From assembly GCA_028714495.1 (NCBI GenBank), contig JAQTMH010000003.1, positions 8,496 through 72,495 of the forward strand: a stretch of 64,000 nucleotides of DNA, given 5' to 3'. Source of the DNA: Patescibacteria group bacterium. GTDB lineage: Bacteria > Patescibacteriota > Patescibacteriia > JAHIZJ01. Under the pieces are notes generated by a model. That model made no database searches, had not been told where the DNA came from, and worked only from the letters and a program-made list of their open reading frames with translations. This document shows positions 27,760 through 45,903 of the stretch, in pieces; position 1 is the stretch's first letter; every line of letters begins with the position of its first letter. A program made the translations under genes and the position numbers.

Positions 27760-28212
27760 TTATATCTTTTCTACTAAAATTACTGCCTGCTGATCAGTAC
27801 CCAAACCCTGCGCCTGTTGCAGGGTAAAACGATAGCCATTCAATTCCTTTATTGGTTCATCCACAGTGCCGCTTTGTTCAGCCAAGCTCAGCAACAAACC
27901 ATCAGTGTCATTTATAGTCAGCCTGACCACGTAAACCCGACCTAGCTCCGCCCCCTCGGTCTTTATCGCGACCCCTTCATTTGTTATGGTTAAACTCCCT
28001 AAAACATTTTTCGCGGTCGCGCCGCTTTTGATAACAAGCTGCTGGCTGGTATTTTCTGGTTTATTTTCATTCGCTTCACCACCCGCGGCATTCGAATTGT
28101 CCGTTTTTGAACTGTCGTTAAAAAACGGCTTGAGATTGAATTTCCAAGCTGCGAATATTGTCCCGCCAATAATCAGAACAATGATGATTAGTATGATGTA
28201 GTTTTTGCTCAT
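27760..28212 (-). CDS. membrane-anchored hypothetical protein
   Basis: N-terminal TM helix followed by a low-complexity extracytoplasmic region. Confidence 0.45.
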   Translation of the reverse strand: MSKNYIILIIIVLIIGGTIFAAWKFNLKPFFNDSSKTDNSNAAGGEANENKPENTSQQLVIKSGATAKNVLGSLTITNEGVAIKTEGAELGRVYVVRLTINDTDGLLLSLAEQSGTVDEPIKELNGYRFTLQQAQGLGTDQQAVILVEKI

Positions 28213-28293
28213 GATGTAGATTTAATACTTTTCTTAATTCTAGTCAATTACTCCGTCCTTTACAATTATTAATTTTGAATTCTTAATTTCTTA

Positions 28294-29091
28294 CTAGACC
28301 GGTCTCAATGTTCCAAACCATACCTGCCAAGCCAAAAGAGATTTGGCGAGCAGGCTAAGTATGATATAAACTCGCTCGCCGTATAAATAATCTCGCCATT
28401 TTCCCACCTTTTTATACTGCAGCACCATATTTACGGCGAAGACGTTAAAGAATACGAAAAGTGAAAAGAAGATCCAATAGACAAAGGTCGGAGCCTGGCC
28501 AGTGGCACCGCCGGCAAAAAAGAGATAAAGCGCGATCGCCACCCAGGGTATTGCGCCAGCCAGTGAACCAAAATAAAACGACGTCCAATTTGTCTTGGCG
28601 GTTGTTTGGTTGTGCAGCTCCATCATCCAGCCAAAAAGTATCATCATCATATTCAGGAAAAACATCAGCATAAGGCTGACGCCATCATACATTCCCACCA
28701 GTGCGGCAATAACCACAATCATCAACGATGAACTGAAAGCATATTCTATCCAACGCGCGTAATTAGCGCCTTTGAGCAGATTCCGATTATACCATTCGTT
28801 AATCCCCGGCAATGAAATCATCAAATGCGCCAAGGCTGATAAAAACAAAAATCCGGCCACTAAGGGACCCAATCGAAGAGTAAACAACTCTTTTAAAACC
28901 GGCTCAAGCTTACCCGTTATTTTATTGAATTCCACAAAGGCCGAGTTGATGGGCAAGCTGAATTTATTGCTTAAAGCTAACATCAGAATGCCCTGGGCCA
29001 GATGAAGAAAAAACATCATTAAATTAAAACGCTTCAGTCTTTTAAAACGGTCGCTGTTGTCCGCAGTTGAGGAAATGTTTGAATCTTCCAT
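28294..29091 (-). CDS. heliorhodopsin
   Basis: 265-aa 7-TM protein. The match to heliorhodopsin 48C12 is compared from memory of its sequence: RWIEYAFSSSLMIVVIAAL vs RWVEYSLSSSVMIVLIAQ, MILFGWMME vs MILFGWLQE, GERVYIILSLLAKSLLAWQVWFGTL vs GERAYIVLSLVAKSALAWQIFSGTL. A TM7 lysine and a TM3 glutamate are both present. Confidence 0.9.
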   Translation of the reverse strand: MEDSNISSTADNSDRFKRLKRFNLMMFFLHLAQGILMLALSNKFSLPINSAFVEFNKITGKLEPVLKELFTLRLGPLVAGFLFLSALAHLMISLPGINEWYNRNLLKGANYARWIEYAFSSSLMIVVIAALVGMYDGVSLMLMFFLNMMMILFGWMMELHNQTTAKTNWTSFYFGSLAGAIPWVAIALYLFFAGGATGQAPTFVYWIFFSLFVFFNVFAVNMVLQYKKVGKWRDYLYGERVYIILSLLAKSLLAWQVWFGTLRPV

Positions 29092-29138
29092 GTGTTTAAA
29101 TAATGTAAACTATTTATAATATCTTGGATTCCTAACTT

Positions 29139-29345
29139 TTACTCTCCCAAAATCCACTCAAGCAGTTTGATTTGTTCTTTAGTAACCTTCTCTTTTAAAT
29201 CAAATTCCGCTCTCAGCTCTTTACTTTGTTCGGAATCCTCTTGTAAATCTTCGTCTTGAAGCGCCTCTTCAAATTCATCATCGATTCCGTCCTCAATCTC
29301 CTCTAGCTCTTCTATTTTTTGTCTGATTTCATCTTCAGTTTTCAT
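29139..29345 (-). CDS. small acidic hypothetical protein
   Basis: 68 aa, highly acidic (E/D-rich). Coding status is uncertain. Confidence 0.3.
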   Translation of the reverse strand: MKTEDEIRQKIEELEEIEDGIDDEFEEALQDEDLQEDSEQSKELRAEFDLKEKVTKEQIKLLEWILGE

Positions 29346-29505
29346 GTTTGATATTTAGCTAATAATAAAGATTTTTTCGTATTGACAATTCGAATTTATT
29401 TTATGTCTTATGAACTAATAAATCAAGCGTCCAGGCAGTGCTAACGAATACCGCCGGATTTTAAACCGGCGGCATTCTATTCGTTCTTATCGTTTGCCCT
29501 GCCTA

Positions 29506-30063
29506 TTATTCCGTTTCATTCGTATCAAAAGCATTTGTGTTATCCGAGGTGCTGTCAGTCTTCGAAGCGCTGATCACTACCGTGTTTTTCCCGTCTTCGC
29601 TACCCTTGTTTATCCCAACCGAAACCATGCGATTTTCCTTTTCGGCCCAGATCGCGGCTGAACCCTCATAAACCATTGAGCTGGTTATGGCCCAGCCGTC
29701 CGCCTTTAGTTCGGTATCATAGAGGGCTTTTACTTCGCTGACGGTCTTTGAAGTTTCAATCGAGATTGAATAATCCTTGTCTTTGGTGTAAGTGAAGGCG
29801 GCGGTAATATTTCCGTCAACCAAATAAATATCGTCAGGAAAACCGTCGGGCAAGCTGACGTTCTCGCCGGCCTCATATGAACTGTTGTTGGTATTGATTT
29901 TTACCGTATTTTTGCTGACATCGACGTCAGCCTGGCCTTTAGTCGCTGTTTCCAGAGCCTTTTCAGCGGCTTTCTCGGCTGAGGATTTGCCGCAGCCGGT
30001 TAAAACCAATGCGATCGCCACAACGAGCATTGGCGCAATAAACCAAATTTTTTTGTTAAGCAT
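29506..30063 (-). CDS. lipoprotein (signal peptide plus lipobox LTGC)
   Basis: MLNKKIWFIAPMLVVAIALVLTGCG. A TTGTCA-N17-TAATAT promoter lies upstream on the minus strand. Confidence 0.6.
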   Translation of the reverse strand: MLNKKIWFIAPMLVVAIALVLTGCGKSSAEKAAEKALETATKGQADVDVSKNTVKINTNNSSYEAGENVSLPDGFPDDIYLVDGNITAAFTYTKDKDYSISIETSKTVSEVKALYDTELKADGWAITSSMVYEGSAAIWAEKENRMVSVGINKGSEDGKNTVVISASKTDSTSDNTNAFDTNETE

Positions 30064-30141
30064 GGTTATATAATTAATTAAATATTAGCCAATTTAATAT
30101 TATCATATCATCAAACAAATGACAAATAAACTCGCACCCCC

Positions 30142-30169
30142 TTGACAAATATTAGGGGCGGTGTATAAT
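30142..30169 (+). promoter_or_regulatory. consensus sigma70-type promoter (TTGACA-N16-TATAAT)
   Basis: TTGACA at 30142-30147 and TATAAT at 30164-30169. It reads into the GC-rich ORF-free region. Confidence 0.6.
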
Positions 30170-30176
30170 GCCAAAG

Positions 30177-31075
30177 TTGCGTGTTTTTACGGGGTGATAT
30201 TGCTGCTACCGCTGGGGCGCTAGCTAGTCAGATCTTTTGGCTACCTAATGCCTCGGCAATACCCATAGGCCATATAGGAGGGACTTGCCAATGGGCTAGC
30301 AAGCTAATTACCGCGCGAACGGACTTGAGAAAACTGCAAGGAGCTTCAGTCCACCGGTTGTCTGACCCCGCTCTCAAAGTGGTGTCAGGCAACCACTCTA
30401 ATGCGGTCTACTGCGGTCCACCACAGGGAGGAAGGCCCATGCAGACACGCTACGAAAAGTAAGGTTTGCAGCCGGAAGGTTGCTCATGCGGAAACCTGGA
30501 CATACCCGCGGGTTACACCTGGCACTTTGCCGAAAACCCGAAAAGGAAAATCCGTCTTTCGAAGGCATCGCCAGATTGACGGAATGTCCCCTTGACGCCT
30601 GGGTATAAGGCGGAATCCTCCAAAATCCCTGGAGGTCCCTCTTTGCCAGTACGTCGCCGGCACTATGCAGAATGGCGATGATGCTGTCTCCGAGGTGTTC
30701 GCGGCACCGTTGTCGCCAGGGTATCGCGCTGCTGCTAATACGGCATCTCGCAGTGGCGCCACGAGGTTGCACTTTGATAAAATCAATTCGTTCGATCTTC
30801 CAGGGCAGGGGTCGCCCCACGCGTGTCGCCGGGCTTTCCGCGATCAGTCGCGCGCGGGCCACCCCTCCCTGGTCTGTCTGGACCCGTTATGGTGGCCGGG
30901 AGCCAATCTTCCGGTTGCGGTGGGGATTTGCCGCCGGCTTTCGCTGGCGGTGCCACTGCTGCGTGCTTCGCGCGCTGCGAGCACCACTCCTGGGGTCTGG
31001 GCACGGGGCGGAGAATTTCATTGGCCGGGGCAGCTTGCTGCCACCGACTCAATGAGACTCCGCCCCTCTTTTTAT
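30177..31075 (+). ncRNA. candidate large structured noncoding RNA (about 0.9 kb, unclassified)
   Basis: About 60% GC in a roughly 43% GC genome. No ORF longer than about 160 aa, and every ORF is Arg/Pro/Ala-rich and overlapping on both strands. Bounded by a perfect promoter and an intrinsic terminator. Internal hairpins are numerous (for example GGCAG-CTTG-CTGCC and AGTGG ... CCACT). Confidence 0.45.
31005..31075 (+). terminator. intrinsic terminator ending the GC-rich element
   Basis: GGGGCGGAG ... CTCCGCCCC 9-bp stem followed by TCTTTTTATTT. Confidence 0.55.
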
Positions 31076-31148
31076 TTGTTTAGAACCAATAAAAGTATCG
31101 AGTTACAATCATTAATTCAGTTTATACATAGCCGGAGCCACTACAAAT

Positions 31149-31272
31149 AACCCCGCCCCTATCCTAAAGATGTCTGTCGTAATAGTAAAAGCATAGCCGC
31201 TAGGCGGCTTCGCCTTACGTCCATGAAATACTTATGACATTACTGGGATAGGGGCGGGGTTTGATATTTTTT
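31149..31272 (+). terminator. 16-bp perfect GC-rich inverted repeat enclosing an 81-nt loop, followed by a T-run
   Basis: AACCCCGCCCCTATCC ... GGATAGGGGCGGGGTT then TGATATTTTTT. It shares the GGGGCGG core with the upstream terminator and the promoter spacer. Confidence 0.45.
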
Positions 31273-31302
31273 AATTTAGCACTACAAATGATCAAACGCA
31301 GG

Positions 31303-31347
31303 CGATGAAACCTTGCCCCATACTCGATACGATGGTTTCCTCGCCTA
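31303..31347 (-). terminator. probable terminator of the ATP synthase operon
   Basis: GGCGATGAAACC ... GGTTTCCTCGCC 12-bp stem, 27 nt downstream of atpC. Confidence 0.4.
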
Positions 31348-31373
31348 CGTTGATATTATCGTTATAAATACCT

Positions 31374-31841
31374 TTATTCACCCGACTGTTTTTTCTTCAG
31401 CTCGTCTTCTCTTATTACCCGATCAGCCCGTTTCGTGCGGTGGCGTTCAGCTACCCGAAGCCTGGCCAATTCCTTCTCGATCTTGGACATTACGGCGGCG
31501 AATTCCTTCTGATCGGTCCGGCGGGTTTTCAGAAGCTCTTCAGCCTTTTGATGCGCTTCTTTGGCTCTCTCAATGTCTATTTCCTCGGCCCGTTCCGCGG
31601 TTTCAGCCAGGACCACGACTTTATTTGGCTGGATCTCGGCAAAGCCGGCTGAAATGGCCATCGGGACCTCATCAGTCCCTTTCTTCACCCGCAGCTCGCC
31701 GGCTGACAGCGCCGTAATCAAAGGCACATGATGAGGCAGTACCGTAATCTCTCCCATTGGCGTAGGCAGAGATACCTGGTCAATCTCGTCATTGTAGACG
31801 ACGCGTTCAGGCGTGACAATTTGGAAATTTATCTTAGCCAT
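31374..31841 (-). CDS. atpC: ATP synthase F1 epsilon subunit
   Basis: Epsilon beta-sandwich N-terminus followed by a helical C-terminus (start at MAKINFQIVTPE). Last gene of the atp operon. Confidence 0.85.
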   Translation of the reverse strand: MAKINFQIVTPERVVYNDEIDQVSLPTPMGEITVLPHHVPLITALSAGELRVKKGTDEVPMAISAGFAEIQPNKVVVLAETAERAEEIDIERAKEAHQKAEELLKTRRTDQKEFAAVMSKIEKELARLRVAERHRTKRADRVIREDELKKKQSGE

Positions 31842-38723: not shown

Positions 38724-39317
38724 TTATTTTAATGTTTTGCTTATTATATCCCAATTAAAATATTGATATGGTGATTTATGATATTTGCTTGGCAATGATC
38801 CTTTTATGGGATTACGTTTGATGTAATTTAACACCGCTTTAAAATACTCATCATTATTGATAATCCGGGTATAAAAACGGCGCTGCCAAATCGTATATGG
38901 AATATCGTGTTTTTTACGCAATTCGTTGATAAAATAGGATTTGATGCCGTGTAATAAATCGGTAATATTATATCCGCCATCCTCCCTTTCCCCGTTCCGA
39001 ACGCGGGCCGCCGTGCCCGCGTTTGTTGTTTTATGTCTAACATTTTTTATTTGTCGCGCAACCACTGCGGTCATGTATGTACGTCCACGCGCAACCACTG
39101 CGGGTTGCGCTCGGGTGTTCTTCATTACCAATAAATGTATATGATCTGGCATAATTTGATACGATATGACATCAAAACACTTAATATTGCATGTCTTAAA
39201 TATTACCCTGCTTAATAAACGCGTATATTTTATATCCTCAAAAAACGGCAATCCTTCGTTTGTCCGAAACGTTACGAAATACGGATATTCATCTTGATAG
39301 ATTCTTCTTTGAGTCAT
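38724..39317 (-). CDS. IS200/IS605-family HUH tyrosine transposase-like protein (RAYT-like), possibly degenerate
   Basis: HUH motif MPDHIHLLV. The C-terminal IWQRRFYTRII resembles the RAYT WQRRFHDH motif, but the HDH is lost. An in-frame low-complexity insertion is encoded by a duplicated CGCGCAACCACTGCGG hairpin repeat (39046..39120). Confidence 0.6.
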   Translation of the reverse strand: MTQRRIYQDEYPYFVTFRTNEGLPFFEDIKYTRLLSRVIFKTCNIKCFDVISYQIMPDHIHLLVMKNTRAQPAVVARGRTYMTAVVARQIKNVRHKTTNAGTAARVRNGEREDGGYNITDLLHGIKSYFINELRKKHDIPYTIWQRRFYTRIINNDEYFKAVLNYIKRNPIKGSLPSKYHKSPYQYFNWDIISKTLK

Positions 39318-41128: not shown

Positions 41129-43357
41129 TTACAAACTATTGTATAAATCAAGCCAATCGCCAAGATCGCCAGGTTCAAATTTTTTACTTGACTCATCAAA
41201 ATATACCCATCTTCCAGTATAATTTCTTTGATCGGTGTTTGTTACTATACCACCAAAAATCTTTTTTCCTTTTTTCTTTTCACAATATATATATTTATAA
41301 AACCCATCAATTTTTGGACCAGCCATTTGTTTTGTAAAACCTGACTTTGTGTCAAATAACCCAATTCTGCCATCCTTCAATTTTACTATAAAATCCACAT
41401 AAAAAGGTTTTTGTTCACCATTCTTGTATGGAATAGCAAAAAATATGGAATCACGATCTCCATTTTTAAACCACCATTCTATCTTATTTGAACCATTTAT
41501 ATATTCAATAAAGGCTTTTTCCGTCCTCCATTCATTCTTACTATAAAAAGGCTGCATTATTGATTTCTTTCTTTCTTCTTGTGCATAATCCTCATTAAAC
41601 CGCATAGACTTAGGTATATTCCATTTTTCTTGAACAATTAATTCACTATCCCTTTTTTCTACCTCTTTTTGGTATTCATCTTTAGTCTTACTTAAAACAT
41701 TGAGAAAATGCTTACTATTTTTTTCACTTAATACTATTTGAACAATTTCATCCCATTTTTCGGCATATTTCATTTTAAGTTCATTTTCAAAAAACTTGTA
41801 TATTGATTCTTTAACTCTACCCACTGACCGATCTTCTGGATAGAAAGGAGCCAAATTTTTTCTAACGAAGTAATCAATTAATTTCTGTAAATCAAAGCCA
41901 CTGGCTTTTATTTCCTTATTCCCCGAAATTTTCACTTTTGCCAAAATATCAATGTCTTCTGCCCGCCAGTTAGTCACTATTTTTTGATCAATTTTTTTTG
42001 ACTTGATATCTACTTTACTTTTTAAACCATACACTTTCGCAAATTTCAAAAATAACTCGATAAAAAACGGAGATAATCTAGTTTTTTCTCTATGACGCCT
42101 AGAATAATAGGATTTTAAATTAATTGGTTTATAGCTTTTTATTCTCTTACTAATATAAATTGTGATGTAATTCCTCGCGATATCTTCTTGAATTTCAATA
42201 TTATCTAAATTCGTGTAAACATAGCCGTAATTTAAAATCTCATTTGGATAGTGACCAAAATCTGGCTCGGGCATACGCATTATTCTGCCGACTGTTTGAA
42301 TAGAAAAAATTGGGCTGTGCCATTCTCTAAATAAAACCAAAATCTGCGCCCTGGGGCAGTCCCAGCCCAAAGCTATTGCCTGTTTAAAAATTAAGACTTC
42401 AACTTTACTATCATTCTTTTCAACATATTCCTTATTAACATGTTCGCCAGAAAGCCAGATAGCGAGTTTGCTATTATCCTTTTCTGTCGTAATTTTATAT
42501 TTATTTTTCAAAATACTTTCCACTCTTTCCCTTATTCTATCTTCTAAGCTTGATTTTCTGTCGGGTAATTGTATTAAAATTAATGGATTAACATTAACTC
42601 CTTCTTTTTTGAAGGCTTTTACAATTTCAATTCTTTTTTGAATAGCCGCGCCTATAACTAACTCTTCGCTGCCACCACTTAGATTTTGCGTCTTTATTTT
42701 TCCTTGCTTTATAATATTGTCAAAATTATCGTTCAGAATGACCGCCTTTTTGATCATACCATCTTTTTTTACATCTTCTAGTAATACATCAACTTGGAGA
42801 TCGCCACTTAGAACTGGCGTGGCCGAGACCTCAATCGTTAATTTAGGATTAATCATCTCAATTAAACCTTGTGAAATTTCGCTGGTGGCGTGGTGGTGGG
42901 CTTCATCAATGACCAAGATTATTTCTCTGCCTTCTTCCCTTGTATTTTCAATAACTTTTGATAAATTGAAATCTTGTTCATTGTCGCGAATATATATATT
43001 GTCTTTTTTATTAATGCTTTCCCAATTGAAAAACAAAATTTCGTTCTGATCAATTCTTATATCGTCTAAATCATCAAAATATGAACACTTTATAGCACGG
43101 CTTTTTTCAAAATAATTTTCCAGCTTCTCTTTACTTTGGATATGAAGTTGCCGGGGAGCGGTCCAAATAAAGCCGAATAATTGTTTGATTTCTCTATCAT
43201 CTGCCAATTGCTTTAAAAACTCGGCCATCATTATTGTCTTGCCAGAACCCGTGGGCGCTTTAAAAACTAATTTTTTACTACCAGAGTACTCCAAAAGTCT
43301 TTTAGTTTTGTTCATTAAATCGTCTATTGCATTTTCCTGGTATATTTTTAGTTGCAT
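41129..43357 (-). CDS. res: Type III restriction enzyme Res subunit (SF2 helicase-like)
   Basis: Walker A KAPTGSGKT and the DEAH box VIDEAHH. Very low GC. Confidence 0.8.
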   Translation of the reverse strand: MQLKIYQENAIDDLMNKTKRLLEYSGSKKLVFKAPTGSGKTIMMAEFLKQLADDREIKQLFGFIWTAPRQLHIQSKEKLENYFEKSRAIKCSYFDDLDDIRIDQNEILFFNWESINKKDNIYIRDNEQDFNLSKVIENTREEGREIILVIDEAHHHATSEISQGLIEMINPKLTIEVSATPVLSGDLQVDVLLEDVKKDGMIKKAVILNDNFDNIIKQGKIKTQNLSGGSEELVIGAAIQKRIEIVKAFKKEGVNVNPLILIQLPDRKSSLEDRIRERVESILKNKYKITTEKDNSKLAIWLSGEHVNKEYVEKNDSKVEVLIFKQAIALGWDCPRAQILVLFREWHSPIFSIQTVGRIMRMPEPDFGHYPNEILNYGYVYTNLDNIEIQEDIARNYITIYISKRIKSYKPINLKSYYSRRHREKTRLSPFFIELFLKFAKVYGLKSKVDIKSKKIDQKIVTNWRAEDIDILAKVKISGNKEIKASGFDLQKLIDYFVRKNLAPFYPEDRSVGRVKESIYKFFENELKMKYAEKWDEIVQIVLSEKNSKHFLNVLSKTKDEYQKEVEKRDSELIVQEKWNIPKSMRFNEDYAQEERKKSIMQPFYSKNEWRTEKAFIEYINGSNKIEWWFKNGDRDSIFFAIPYKNGEQKPFYVDFIVKLKDGRIGLFDTKSGFTKQMAGPKIDGFYKYIYCEKKKGKKIFGGIVTNTDQRNYTGRWVYFDESSKKFEPGDLGDWLDLYNSL

Positions 43358-43361
43358 AATT

Positions 43362-44213
43362 TTATAATAACGCTTTTCCTAATCTTATTTTTGATAAACA
43401 ATTAATTAGTGTTTTAAATGTCATATAATAATTAGCTGCTATTTTAAGATAATTTGTATAAAAATCGCTAAATTGTTCGTCGCTAATGTCTTTATCTAAA
43501 AATTCTAAATCTCTATAATTTGATTTTATTCTATAGCAGTAAAAAAATTCAAAAAGATTAACTGTACTATATTCTAAAAATTCTTTTTTTTCAAGTCTAT
43601 TTTTTTTAGATCTATAATCTCTTATTTTCCTTTTTCTTTGAAAATCTTCAAGTTTATAACTAATAAGCTTTTTAAGTAATTGTGTAATTCTTTCGCCTAA
43701 ATTTATACCAATTACTTTTAGATTAGCGCCTGATTTAGCCTTATAATTCATAATTTTTAAACACTGAAAATTTGAGTTGAACATCTTTTTATTAAAAATT
43801 ATTTCTTTCCTTTCGATGTGACCCTTTAAACTTTTTATCAAGCCCTCGTGCGAACAATTAAATGAAGATTCTTGACCAGAAATAAGATATTCTAATATCA
43901 AAAATAAATTAAACATTAAATAATATATTTTTACGGCTATCCATGGTACACAAACCTCGGCAAAACCAATATTTGTTTTAATATTCTCCGATTCAAGTTG
44001 AAGGTTCTTTATTATCAATTTTATTAGATTGATCTTTTTTTTAAGAATTTTCCCTTCGTATATTTTTTTCTTAAAATCTAATTTACATTCAGCACTTAAA
44101 CCTTCGGAAATAGTGTTAAAACAGATAACATAATTCAAGTGCGTCATAAAATCCGGAGGGTGTTCTTTTTTATACTCTTCGTTTTCTTTTTCTATCCACT
44201 TACTTAAATCCAT
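43362..44213 (-). CDS. hypothetical protein encoded between mod and res (283 aa, K/N/I/L-rich)
   Basis: Overlaps both the mod stop and the res start by a few bp, which suggests translational coupling. About 25% GC. No family recognised. Confidence 0.55.
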   Translation of the reverse strand: MDLSKWIEKENEEYKKEHPPDFMTHLNYVICFNTISEGLSAECKLDFKKKIYEGKILKKKINLIKLIIKNLQLESENIKTNIGFAEVCVPWIAVKIYYLMFNLFLILEYLISGQESSFNCSHEGLIKSLKGHIERKEIIFNKKMFNSNFQCLKIMNYKAKSGANLKVIGINLGERITQLLKKLISYKLEDFQRKRKIRDYRSKKNRLEKKEFLEYSTVNLFEFFYCYRIKSNYRDLEFLDKDISDEQFSDFYTNYLKIAANYYMTFKTLINCLSKIRLGKALL

Positions 44214-44217
44214 TTCT

Positions 44218-45903
44218 TTATTTAAAAATTCTTCTATAAACTCTCAAAATTGCCTCAGGTATCGGAGATAATCTTACTTTTTGTTTTATATCTTCAAATT
44301 CTTCGTCAAATGTTTCATCGCCTAACGAAAATATGTAGACACTAAATTTACCTTTAAAATTCTTTATTACCTTCTTAAAGACGGAAATTGCCAATGGATC
44401 ATAAATTATACCAGTATAGTGATCAGTATTTTTGAAAATTTTATAATTGTTCTGGGCCAATACGGGTTTGAAAGTACCCTCTTTTACACAAAGCATCTCG
44501 GTCGCCTCGGCGGTAAGTTTAATTTTATTTTTATCTGTGGGTTCGCCATCAACAAAATCAGTTTTGAAATATTTTAGTATACCACCCAAACCTTTTATTT
44601 TTTCGCCTTTCAAATTTTCATAACCCATAATAACTTTCTTGACTCGTGGATAACAAATGTTTGTGGCTATGTCATTTTCATTGTTTGTACATAAAATAAA
44701 CTGGCGATTACCATTATCTTCTTTATTTAGTTCTAAAACCGCTTGACTAGTCGTACCTGTTCCAGCCATAAAATCCAAAATTACAGAATTTTTTTCAGTC
44801 GATAAATTCAACAAATATTTGATTAAAAGATAAGGTTTTGGATAACTAAATACTTTACCATGGAACATTTTTTCTAATTCCTTCGTAGCCATAGTGCTTG
44901 AGTATTGTGAGATTACTGCAAATGGAGGCCGTTGTCTCTCAATAGGATTATTCTCATTATCTACATTTAAATATTGCTTTGAATATACTACCCAATTACC
45001 TGATTTATTCTTATCAATTTTTATAAAGCCGTTTGCAAGACCCCACTTAACCTTTTCTTTGGACCACCTCCAACAAGCTTTTTTATGTTTGAAACTAGGC
45101 CAAATTTCTTTTCTATCGGGTGCAATAATTGGGTAGTCTAGTGATTTTGAGTACTGAATACTAGCACTATTTAGTTTAATCAATTTATGTTTTCCTCTTT
45201 CTTTTTCATATTTATCTGTATAGGTATAGGCATCTTCATCTGGAATTTTTTCTTTATTTATTAAAAATTTGGGCTTATTTTTTGCATACACCAAAACGTA
45301 TTCATGTTTAATTTTGAAGTGCTTACTATCCGAACTACCTCCACCCTCGCGATTTTCCCATACTAAAATGGCAACAAAATTATCTTCACCAAACAACCCA
45401 ATATTTTTATCATCCATTAAAAGTTTTAATTGCGCCACTTCATTATCATCTATAGAAATAAAAATTGCTCCGGTATCTTTTAATAAATATTTTGCTAATT
45501 TTAAACGTTTTTCCATAAACGCAAGCCATTTAGAATGGCGGTAGGCATCTTCTCTATCAACATAGAGGTCATTAAAAATAAAATCTTTACTACCTGTGTT
45601 ATAGGGAGGATCAATATATATGACATCAATTTTTTTGCTATGAGTATAATTCAAAACTGAAAGCGCATGATAATTATCGCCTTCAATCAATAGATTAACC
45701 GGCTTGGTTTTGTCCGTTTCAATTTCTTTGTTTTTAACTTCTTTCAATATCGGCAATTTTTCTTTACACAATTCTACCACGTCCTCCAGCTTCTCTTCCC
45801 AAACCAAACCATATTTTTTACTTTTCTTTAATTCTTTCTTCAATCGTGCCACTTCGGCAAGAAGCTTTGCTTTGGATAAATTTTTATTATCATTTGTTTC
45901 CAT
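44218..45903 (-). CDS. mod: Type III RM Mod subunit (beta-class N6-adenine/N4-cytosine DNA methyltransferase)
   Basis: DPPY motif IV (VIYIDPPYNTG) precedes motif I (FMAGTGTT). This motif order defines the beta class typical of Type III Mod. Confidence 0.85.
   Translation of the reverse strand: METNDNKNLSKAKLLAEVARLKKELKKSKKYGLVWEEKLEDVVELCKEKLPILKEVKNKEIETDKTKPVNLLIEGDNYHALSVLNYTHSKKIDVIYIDPPYNTGSKDFIFNDLYVDREDAYRHSKWLAFMEKRLKLAKYLLKDTGAIFISIDDNEVAQLKLLMDDKNIGLFGEDNFVAILVWENREGGGSSDSKHFKIKHEYVLVYAKNKPKFLINKEKIPDEDAYTYTDKYEKERGKHKLIKLNSASIQYSKSLDYPIIAPDRKEIWPSFKHKKACWRWSKEKVKWGLANGFIKIDKNKSGNWVVYSKQYLNVDNENNPIERQRPPFAVISQYSSTMATKELEKMFHGKVFSYPKPYLLIKYLLNLSTEKNSVILDFMAGTGTTSQAVLELNKEDNGNRQFILCTNNENDIATNICYPRVKKVIMGYENLKGEKIKGLGGILKYFKTDFVDGEPTDKNKIKLTAEATEMLCVKEGTFKPVLAQNNYKIFKNTDHYTGIIYDPLAISVFKKVIKNFKGKFSVYIFSLGDETFDEEFEDIKQKVRLSPIPEAILRVYRRIFK

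Follow-up and report, generated by a model that had tools for sequence, protein, structure and literature searches.

A 64,000-nucleotide (nt) stretch of a metagenome-assembled genome (MAG) from the Patescibacteria (candidate phyla radiation, CPR), referred to here as the window, appears to contain a stand-alone gene for a structured non-coding RNA of ~0.9 kb. The gene would extend from 30176 to about 31080 on the forward strand, strongly promoted and bounded by a terminator, and the sequence evidence gives this reading a probability of roughly 0.6. The product is a probable new, narrowly distributed large structured non-coding RNA. The assignment is based on the gene-like anatomy of the unit, its lack of coding capacity, and a strand-specific structure that is preserved by variation between two strains. 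A large structured RNA had already been proposed for this locus in a first-pass annotation of the same DNA, and the proposal gains from the absence of homology to proteins, from reading frames that are broken in a relative, and from strand-specific folding with structure-preserving variation, although conservation could be traced within one species only. The parts of the predicted unit are as follows.

30142-30169, forward strand: sigma-70-type promoter, with the -35 element TTGACA at 30142-30147, a 16-nt spacer and the -10 element TATAAT at 30164-30169 (12 of 12 consensus positions)
30176-31080, forward strand: predicted primary transcript of ~0.9 kb, its start site placed by inference 7 nt past the -10 box and its 3' end within the U-run
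30176-30770, forward strand: 5' domain of ~55% GC with several well-defined hairpins (e.g. 30356-30394, and 30726-30759 with a 14-nt loop), near-invariant between strains
30771-30799, forward strand: AU-rich linker joining the two domains, UUGCACUUUGAUAAAAUCAAUUCGUUCGAUCUU, for the most part left unpaired, or paired with low confidence, by the partition function, and identical in the second strain
30800-30872, forward strand: hypervariable hairpin closed by CCAGGG/CCCUGG, its interior (30807-30865) replaced in the second strain
30875-31003, forward strand: GC-rich (~70%) multi-helix 3' domain, a closing stem and three hairpins in the two-strain consensus fold
31005-31080, forward strand: intrinsic terminator, a 9-bp GC stem enclosing a branched hairpin with a CUUG tetraloop, then UCUUUUUAUUUGUUU

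The signals at the two ends of the unit are well defined. A perfect TTGACA-16-TATAAT arrangement occurs nowhere else in the 64 kb and in none of 100 dinucleotide shuffles, and the whole of 30142-30169 is conserved (100%) in a second MAG of the same species. At the other end, GGGGCGGAG (31005-31013) pairs with CTCCGCCCC (31058-31066), followed by TCTTTTTATTTG, and the U-run downstream of the 9-bp stem reads UCUUUUUAUUUG. Pair probabilities in this terminator are at least 0.9 in the partition function, and it is conserved in the second strain except for one G-to-A change. A simple terminator scanner missed the element only because its 44-nt "loop" is the branched stem itself. Both signals agree with what the first-pass annotation had described, as do the GGCAG-CTTG-CTGCC hairpin (31030-31043) and the direct repeat GCGGTC-TACT-GCGGTC (30403-30418). 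The contrast in composition that it had reported is also real, with its figures of ~60% and ~43% GC corrected to 58.6% for 30176-31075 and 45.4% for the remainder of the window; GC climbs to 68-74% in 30800-31000. The region 30176-31075 is real DNA and not an assembly artefact, being identical in two Logan contigs and also found in the second NCBI MAG.

There is no sign that the unit encodes a protein, as had been surmised. The longest start-to-stop open reading frames (ORFs), of 161 amino acids (aa) on the forward and 154 aa on the reverse strand, overlap on both strands, and none of nine ORFs of the region has a match in Pfam. A concatenated six-frame translation of 30170-31080 returned nothing at E <= 0.01 from 5.8 billion protein clusters, and the sole frame open in both strains (30672-31052, 127 aa) gave 0 matches in an exhaustive phmmer search of 1.84 billion representatives. 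The frameshifted gene for which a protein-homology check had been advised is likewise absent from the six-frame, Pfam and phmmer results. Comparison of the strains shows that the two longest ORFs are interrupted in the second, one by two stops and the other by a 2-nt indel, and that nearly every substitution is non-synonymous in every frame. No protein is placed in the region by the Logan gene caller or by NCBI PGAP annotation. A seven-codon micro-ORF, MQTRYEK, is present at 30439-30462 on the forward strand, its ATG preceded at 7 nt by GGAGG; that the two strains share it unchanged follows from the conservation of the 5' domain as a whole, and it is probably a chance feature.

The predicted folding of the unit is both strong and strand-specific. 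The forward strand of 30176-31075 has a minimum free energy of -405.9 kcal/mol (z = -8.4 relative to shuffles), compared with -370.6 kcal/mol (z = -5.0) for the reverse strand, and the 5' domain alone (30176-30800) scores z = -4.64 on the forward versus -1.36 on the reverse strand. All six of the sliding 300-nt windows that fall inside the unit lie at -2.0 to -4.0 on the forward strand, and the 154 outside it average -0.7 +/- 1.2. An ORF-free gap after atpC in a relative (locus L046, 430 nt), taken for comparison, has a z of about -1 on both strands. Many hairpins reach pair probabilities of at least 0.9 in the partition function, and there are no internal repeats in the 0.9-kb body. The consensus fold of 30873-31066 contains 74 pairs, 13 of them G-U pairs that can form only on the forward strand.

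Variation within the species provides further insight into which parts of the unit are constrained. The lipoprotein encoded beside it has only one close relative in the protein collection, 98% identical, on contig JAQUOI010000007.1 (GCA_028717285.1; locus L007), which belongs to the second MAG. Gene order is the same in both (atpD, atpC, gap, lipoprotein, 68-aa gene, heliorhodopsin), and background divergence between the two MAGs is ~3%. Hardly any change is seen in the promoter, the terminator or the first 630 nt, and this 5' portion is better conserved than the genes around it. None of the four change events in the 5' domain touches a paired position of the consensus fold, all lying in loops or at other unpaired sites, and one gives a small hairpin loop a new shape (GGCACUUUGCC to GGCUUUGGCC). 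The 3' domain (30873-31066) carries 13 substitutions, which affect 5 of the 74 consensus pairs. All five remain paired, through one compensatory double change (C-G to U-A at 30896/30914) and four wobble-type changes (G-U to A-U twice, C-G to U-G, and G-U to G-C); the single-sequence fold, for its part, loses two peripheral pairs. When the same substitutions were placed at random positions of the same base and scored on the reference structure (500 trials), the observed energy was equalled in 0.4-1% of cases on the forward strand versus 5-49% on the reverse strand. Pairing-preserving variation between the two strains, judged on predicted folds, appears real but thin.

The hypervariable hairpin changes in a different manner. 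A 58-nt block at 30807-30865 is swapped in the second strain for unrelated sequence of identical length, and the 73-nt element closed by CCAGGG/CCCUGG folds to one long hairpin in both strains (-47.0 and -41.2 kcal/mol; z = -3.8 and -3.2). The replacement block has no other copy in any sequence compared. Such a swap between 97%-identical genomes suggests recombination with a more diverged allele, and this wholesale replacement of a hairpin hints that further, more diverged alleles may exist in nature.

The unit lies in a setting in which the reverse strand carries nearly all genes of the window. The gap from 30064 to 31373 that contains it is the longest ORF-free interval there, and the products of its two flanking genes have consecutive NCBI accessions (lipoprotein, MDD5342312.1; AtpC, MDD5342313.1). 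The neighbouring features are as follows.

29506-30063, reverse strand: gene for a lipoprotein of the Pfam family AF_1845, flanking the gap on one side
30097-30125, reverse strand: weaker promoter-like site, TTGTCA-17-TAATAT with a TG extension (9 of 12 positions), back-to-back with the RNA promoter
31149-31261, no strand assigned: 113-nt long hairpin (inverted repeat), REPIN-like, outside the RNA and between its terminator and atpC
31374-31841, reverse strand: atpC, last gene of the atp operon, flanking the gap on the other side

The promoter-like site at 30097-30125 would serve the divergent lipoprotein gene, whose ATG (30063) lies 34 nt downstream of it. Between atpC and an HhH-GPD gene lies an island specific to this species, which comprises the candidate RNA, the AF_1845 lipoprotein, a 68-aa protein, a heliorhodopsin and a 150-aa protein. 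This interval (27760-31373 of the window) is a swap site, at which the sister species (L047, 3966-5121) carries a single radical-SAM gene. The genes for the lipoprotein and the heliorhodopsin (NF038020, 334 bits) are neighbours at 28294-30063 on the reverse strand, with the gene for the 68-aa protein, which is acidic, between them; in a distant lineage (L059, 665-2026; lipoprotein 48% identical) the two are directly adjacent, which suggests that the pairing is conserved. Elsewhere in the window, an island of ~30% GC at 41129-45903 on the reverse strand (window average 45%) holds a type III restriction-modification-like set, made up of a ResIII/DEAD helicase of 742 aa, a 283-aa protein without a family match and an N6_N4 DNA methylase of 561 aa.

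Several observations weigh against a functional RNA, and they can be gathered here. There was no homologue outside the species, and conservation is limited to two MAGs, in searches that covered fetched syntenic loci, phage, plasmid and viral collections, and exact-pattern scans of metagenomes, as opposed to whole-genome or whole-SRA nucleotide similarity. The syntenic loci were anchored on atpC in GTDB genomes or on AtpC homologues of 86%, 75%, 74% and 73% identity. In the closest GTDB species (AtpC 86% identical), as in all of 23 contigs from that species, atpC is followed by a 71-nt gap, a radical-SAM gene and the HhH-GPD gene; no locus has blastn or nhmmer similarity to the RNA, neither these nor those at 73-75% AtpC identity nor those of lipoprotein homologues (41-59% identity) in Kerfeldbacteria and others. 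In the relatives' loci Rfam finds no more than two tRNAs. Distant-mode blastn against phage and plasmid collections gave no homologue, and in JGI metagenomes, scanned for an exact 22-mer and an exact 18-mer, the only match was a chance one in a contig of 70% GC. Six patterns searched in IMG/VR (five derived from the RNA and one from the neighbouring hairpin) produced only 25 chance matches, to a GC-rich 17-mer, and nhmmer showed no similarity reaching beyond them. Stable folding is, moreover, expected of GC-rich sequence as such, and in the 3' domain the reverse strand, too, has good scores. The covariation comes from two near-identical alleles only and rests on 13 substitutions, read against a structure that was itself predicted from these alleles. 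The 3' domain has also diverged faster than the background, a sign that could be taken for relaxed constraint.

These points could be accommodated by an alternative in which the region is inert foreign DNA, a decayed high-GC gene or element behind a strong promoter, with structure as a by-product of its GC-rich and locally palindromic composition. A species-specific island that is missing from the sister species, a GC content 13 points above the genome, the lack of homologues in the searches run, a 3' part that diverges faster than background and a 3' half that folds well on the reverse strand would all be compatible with such an origin. This explanation is nevertheless unlikely. A decayed gene leaves unexplained why no frame shows protein homology in either of the two large protein sets (5.8e9 and 1.84e9 proteins) and why the 5' 630 nt surpass the surrounding genes in conservation. 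Substitutions also keep forward-strand pairs far above chance, and on that strand only; the replaced hairpin keeps its exact length and closing stem; and the region is bounded exactly by a perfect promoter, unique in the window, and a conserved terminator.

The 113-nt hairpin between the RNA terminator and atpC raises the question of mobility. Its arms are AACCCCGCCCCTATCC... and ...GGATAGGGGCGGGGTT, and its folding is strong on both strands (z = -6 to -7.5). The hairpin is 100% conserved in the second strain although the spacer that precedes it differs: between the RNA terminator and the hairpin (L007, 1329-1580) that strain has ~185 extra nt of AT-rich sequence, with no copy elsewhere in the DNA compared. 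Logan k=31 contigs from both sides end exactly 30 nt (k-1) into the hairpin, at 31178 and 31231, and because contigs break k-1 into both ends, the hairpin is suggested to be a multi-copy REPIN-like repeat; no second copy lies within the 64 kb. Its U/A-rich flanks on both strands may also allow it to work as a bidirectional terminator for atpC. A gene 8 kb away (38724-39317, reverse strand) encodes a 197-aa Y1 transposase that is closest to tyrosine transposases associated with repetitive extragenic palindromic (REP) sequences (Pfam Y1_Tnp), scoring 78.8 bits against NCBIfam NF047646, below the cut-off of 80. The presence of this REP-associated tyrosine transposase (RAYT)-like gene fits REP/REPIN-type repeats in this genome. 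In one relative (L045), the gap after atpC encodes a RAYT-like protein, a related transposase gene fragment at 744-1348. The motif GGGGCGG has 5 of its 12 occurrences in the window within this 1.1 kb, in the promoter spacer, the terminator stem and the 113-nt hairpin. The promoter region 30122-30169 resembles the hairpin ends (31143-31159 and 31249-31265), sharing ACAAATAA..C-rich arm and TAGGGGCGG[T/G]GT.T.AT, and a degenerate copy of this repeat may have given rise to the RNA promoter.

The same observations could be taken to mean that the unit is non-coding DNA carried by, or forming the body of, a mobile or REP-associated element, which the RAYT-like transposase would move and whose bounds would be GGGGCGG-type inverted repeats (30153-30164 with 31057-31067 or 31150-31161). 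The clustering of the motif, the likeness of the promoter to the hairpin ends, the nearby transposase gene with a hairpin that behaves as multi-copy in Logan assemblies, and the status of the locus as an insertion relative to the sister species speak for it. It is improbable all the same, given that the 0.9-kb body is non-repetitive and single-copy, as concluded because Logan k=31 contigs pass straight through it, yet break at the neighbouring repeat; no second copy of the body occurs in the window. As for the inverted repeats, they measure a mere 12-16 nt with 81-92% complementarity, and the terminator stem accounts for one. Mobility would in any case not preclude the cargo from being a functional RNA.

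Less probable again is a purely cis-acting element: it might serve the atp operon as a very long convergent terminator or 3' buffer, or regulate neighbouring genes through antisense RNA or transcriptional interference. The candidate RNA unit is convergent with atpC and shares its intergenic space with a bidirectional terminator-like hairpin, and its promoter stands back-to-back with that of the lipoprotein gene. The predicted transcript, however, ends ~300 nt short of atpC and overlaps no gene on the opposite strand, the 71-nt gap after atpC suffices in the sister species, and termination needs no 900 nt of conserved forward-strand structure. The weakest of the alternatives is an unusual small or orphan protein, or several, encoded by frames such as the 127-aa one at 30672-31055, which is open in both strains and whose reading frame the replaced block keeps, or the micro-ORF at 30439-30462 with its good Shine-Dalgarno sequence (GGAGG): this can be set aside as very improbable, since there is no homologue among the 1.84e9 representatives or the 5.8e9 clusters, no Pfam match and no gene called by Logan or NCBI PGAP, since all substitutions in the 127-aa frame are non-synonymous, and since the predicted peptide has the abundance of Arg, Cys and Trp that GC-rich non-coding DNA would give.

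The candidate was also compared with known RNA families. Across the whole 64-kb window, neither ARAGORN nor Rfam 15 (4227 families) reports a tRNA, a tmRNA or any Rfam family at the gathering score. A search of 30000-31400 against Rfam 15 with permissive filters at E <= 10 gave chance-level matches only, to miRNA, snoRNA and sRNA models far below their thresholds, in keeping with the first-pass opinion that no known family fits; the models for OLE, GOLLD, ROOL, raiA, HEARO, RNase P, tmRNA, the signal recognition particle (SRP), 6S, and group I and II introns were all negative. GOLLD (RF01998) and ROOL (RF03087) have no covariance model match, and their usual context is absent, with no tRNA in the 64 kb and with the atp operon, lipoprotein and heliorhodopsin genes as neighbours. 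OLE (RF01071) also has no covariance model match, and the neighbouring genes belong to Pfam families other than those of oapA/oapB. RNase P RNA (RF00010/RF00011; P4 core, CR-I to CR-V) is not matched even at E <= 10. A tmRNA is found by neither ARAGORN nor Rfam, and the 5' GGGG reads AAGG in the other strain. A group II intron is contradicted by the absence of RF00029 or D1-D4 matches and of reverse transcriptase (RT) or other protein homology in six frames. For the hypervariable block, an origin from the template and variable repeats of a diversity-generating retroelement was rejected: the region has no direct repeats and no RT homology, and the second strain's block is without another copy. 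A CsrB-like GGA sponge was rejected as well, GGA motifs being by hand count about as frequent as composition predicts. In the literature searched, no large non-coding RNA class specific to Patescibacteria is described.

A scheme for the action of the RNA can be proposed from these features. The consensus sigma-70 promoter, back-to-back with the lipoprotein promoter, would drive strong transcription, which the long GC-stem/U-run hairpin would end. The product would be a folded RNA rather than a message, with a conserved 5' domain of ~600 nt, the AU-rich linker and a very GC-rich 3' domain of ~270 nt, in which a peripheral hairpin would be free in sequence while its length and closing stem are kept. 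By analogy, the RNA would act in trans with a structural or scaffolding role, whether as a component of a ribonucleoprotein (RNP) or by assembling with itself like OLE, GOLLD and ROOL. Such a role is the most likely one that can be deduced, ahead of a ribozyme of known class or a regulator that acts by base-pairing; a structural role is also favoured over antisense regulation, and the RNA neither overlaps a gene nor carries repeated binding motifs.

Bacteria seldom have large structured RNAs besides those of the ribosome, and the known classes (RNase P, tmRNA, OLE, GOLLD, ROOL, HEARO/omega RNA) have each revealed unexpected biochemistry. The tiny genomes of Patescibacteria hold very little non-coding DNA, so that 0.9 kb given over in one of them to a promoter-driven RNA under structural constraint suggests a real function. 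A bolder proposal, offered tentatively and at somewhat less than even odds, is that the unit is the founding member of an undescribed class of ~0.9-kb structured RNAs in Patescibacteria, with strong expression from a consensus promoter, a conserved 5' core, a GC-rich 3' domain and a hairpin that keeps its shape while being swapped between strains; it might act as an RNP scaffold or self-assembling "ornate" RNA in a strain-variable island with the lipoprotein-heliorhodopsin pair. Other alleles of the hairpin, if they exist, could supply the covariation data for establishing a new RNA class. The narrow distribution limits present impact, and a lineage-specific oddity is also possible.

Comparison with known systems places the candidate RNA among several partial likenesses. 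The housekeeping RNAs (RNase P RNA, tmRNA, SRP RNA and 6S RNA) share with it a GC content above the genome average, a strong promoter, the absence of an ORF and strand-specific folding. The candidate, at 0.9 kb, is twice their size, has no Rfam match and is absent at the syntenic position of the sister species, which is unexpected for an essential RNA. The REP/REPIN and RAYT systems resemble the locus more than the RNA: the neighbouring 113-nt hairpin has the size, the doublet-hairpin form and, by inference, the multi-copy behaviour of a REPIN, a RAYT-like gene lies in the window, and the GGGGCGG motif is common to the hairpin and to the candidate's promoter and terminator. The 0.9-kb body, in contrast, is single-copy, non-repetitive and far larger than any REPIN.

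The closest parallels are with the ornate large RNAs, a likeness already drawn in the first-pass annotation that holds as an analogy only, there being no family match. OLE is found in anaerobic Firmicutes, linked to oapA/B/C, none of which occur at the candidate locus, and is conserved across many genera, whereas the candidate is known from one species. Both are nevertheless large (~600 nt or more) and highly structured, have strong expression signals of their own (predicted ones for the candidate) and a function that is not obvious from sequence, and are encoded beside genes for membrane proteins, here the lipoprotein and the heliorhodopsin. GOLLD and ROOL typically lie in prophages beside tRNA genes, and the candidate has no nearby phage genes and no viral contig or phage matches; they share with it a comparable size (0.6-0.8 kb), many helices, an obscure function, a patchy distribution and an occurrence in environmental metagenomes. 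Although covariance models, genomic context and taxon place the candidate outside these three classes, it resembles OLE, GOLLD and ROOL in size, in anatomy and in obscurity.

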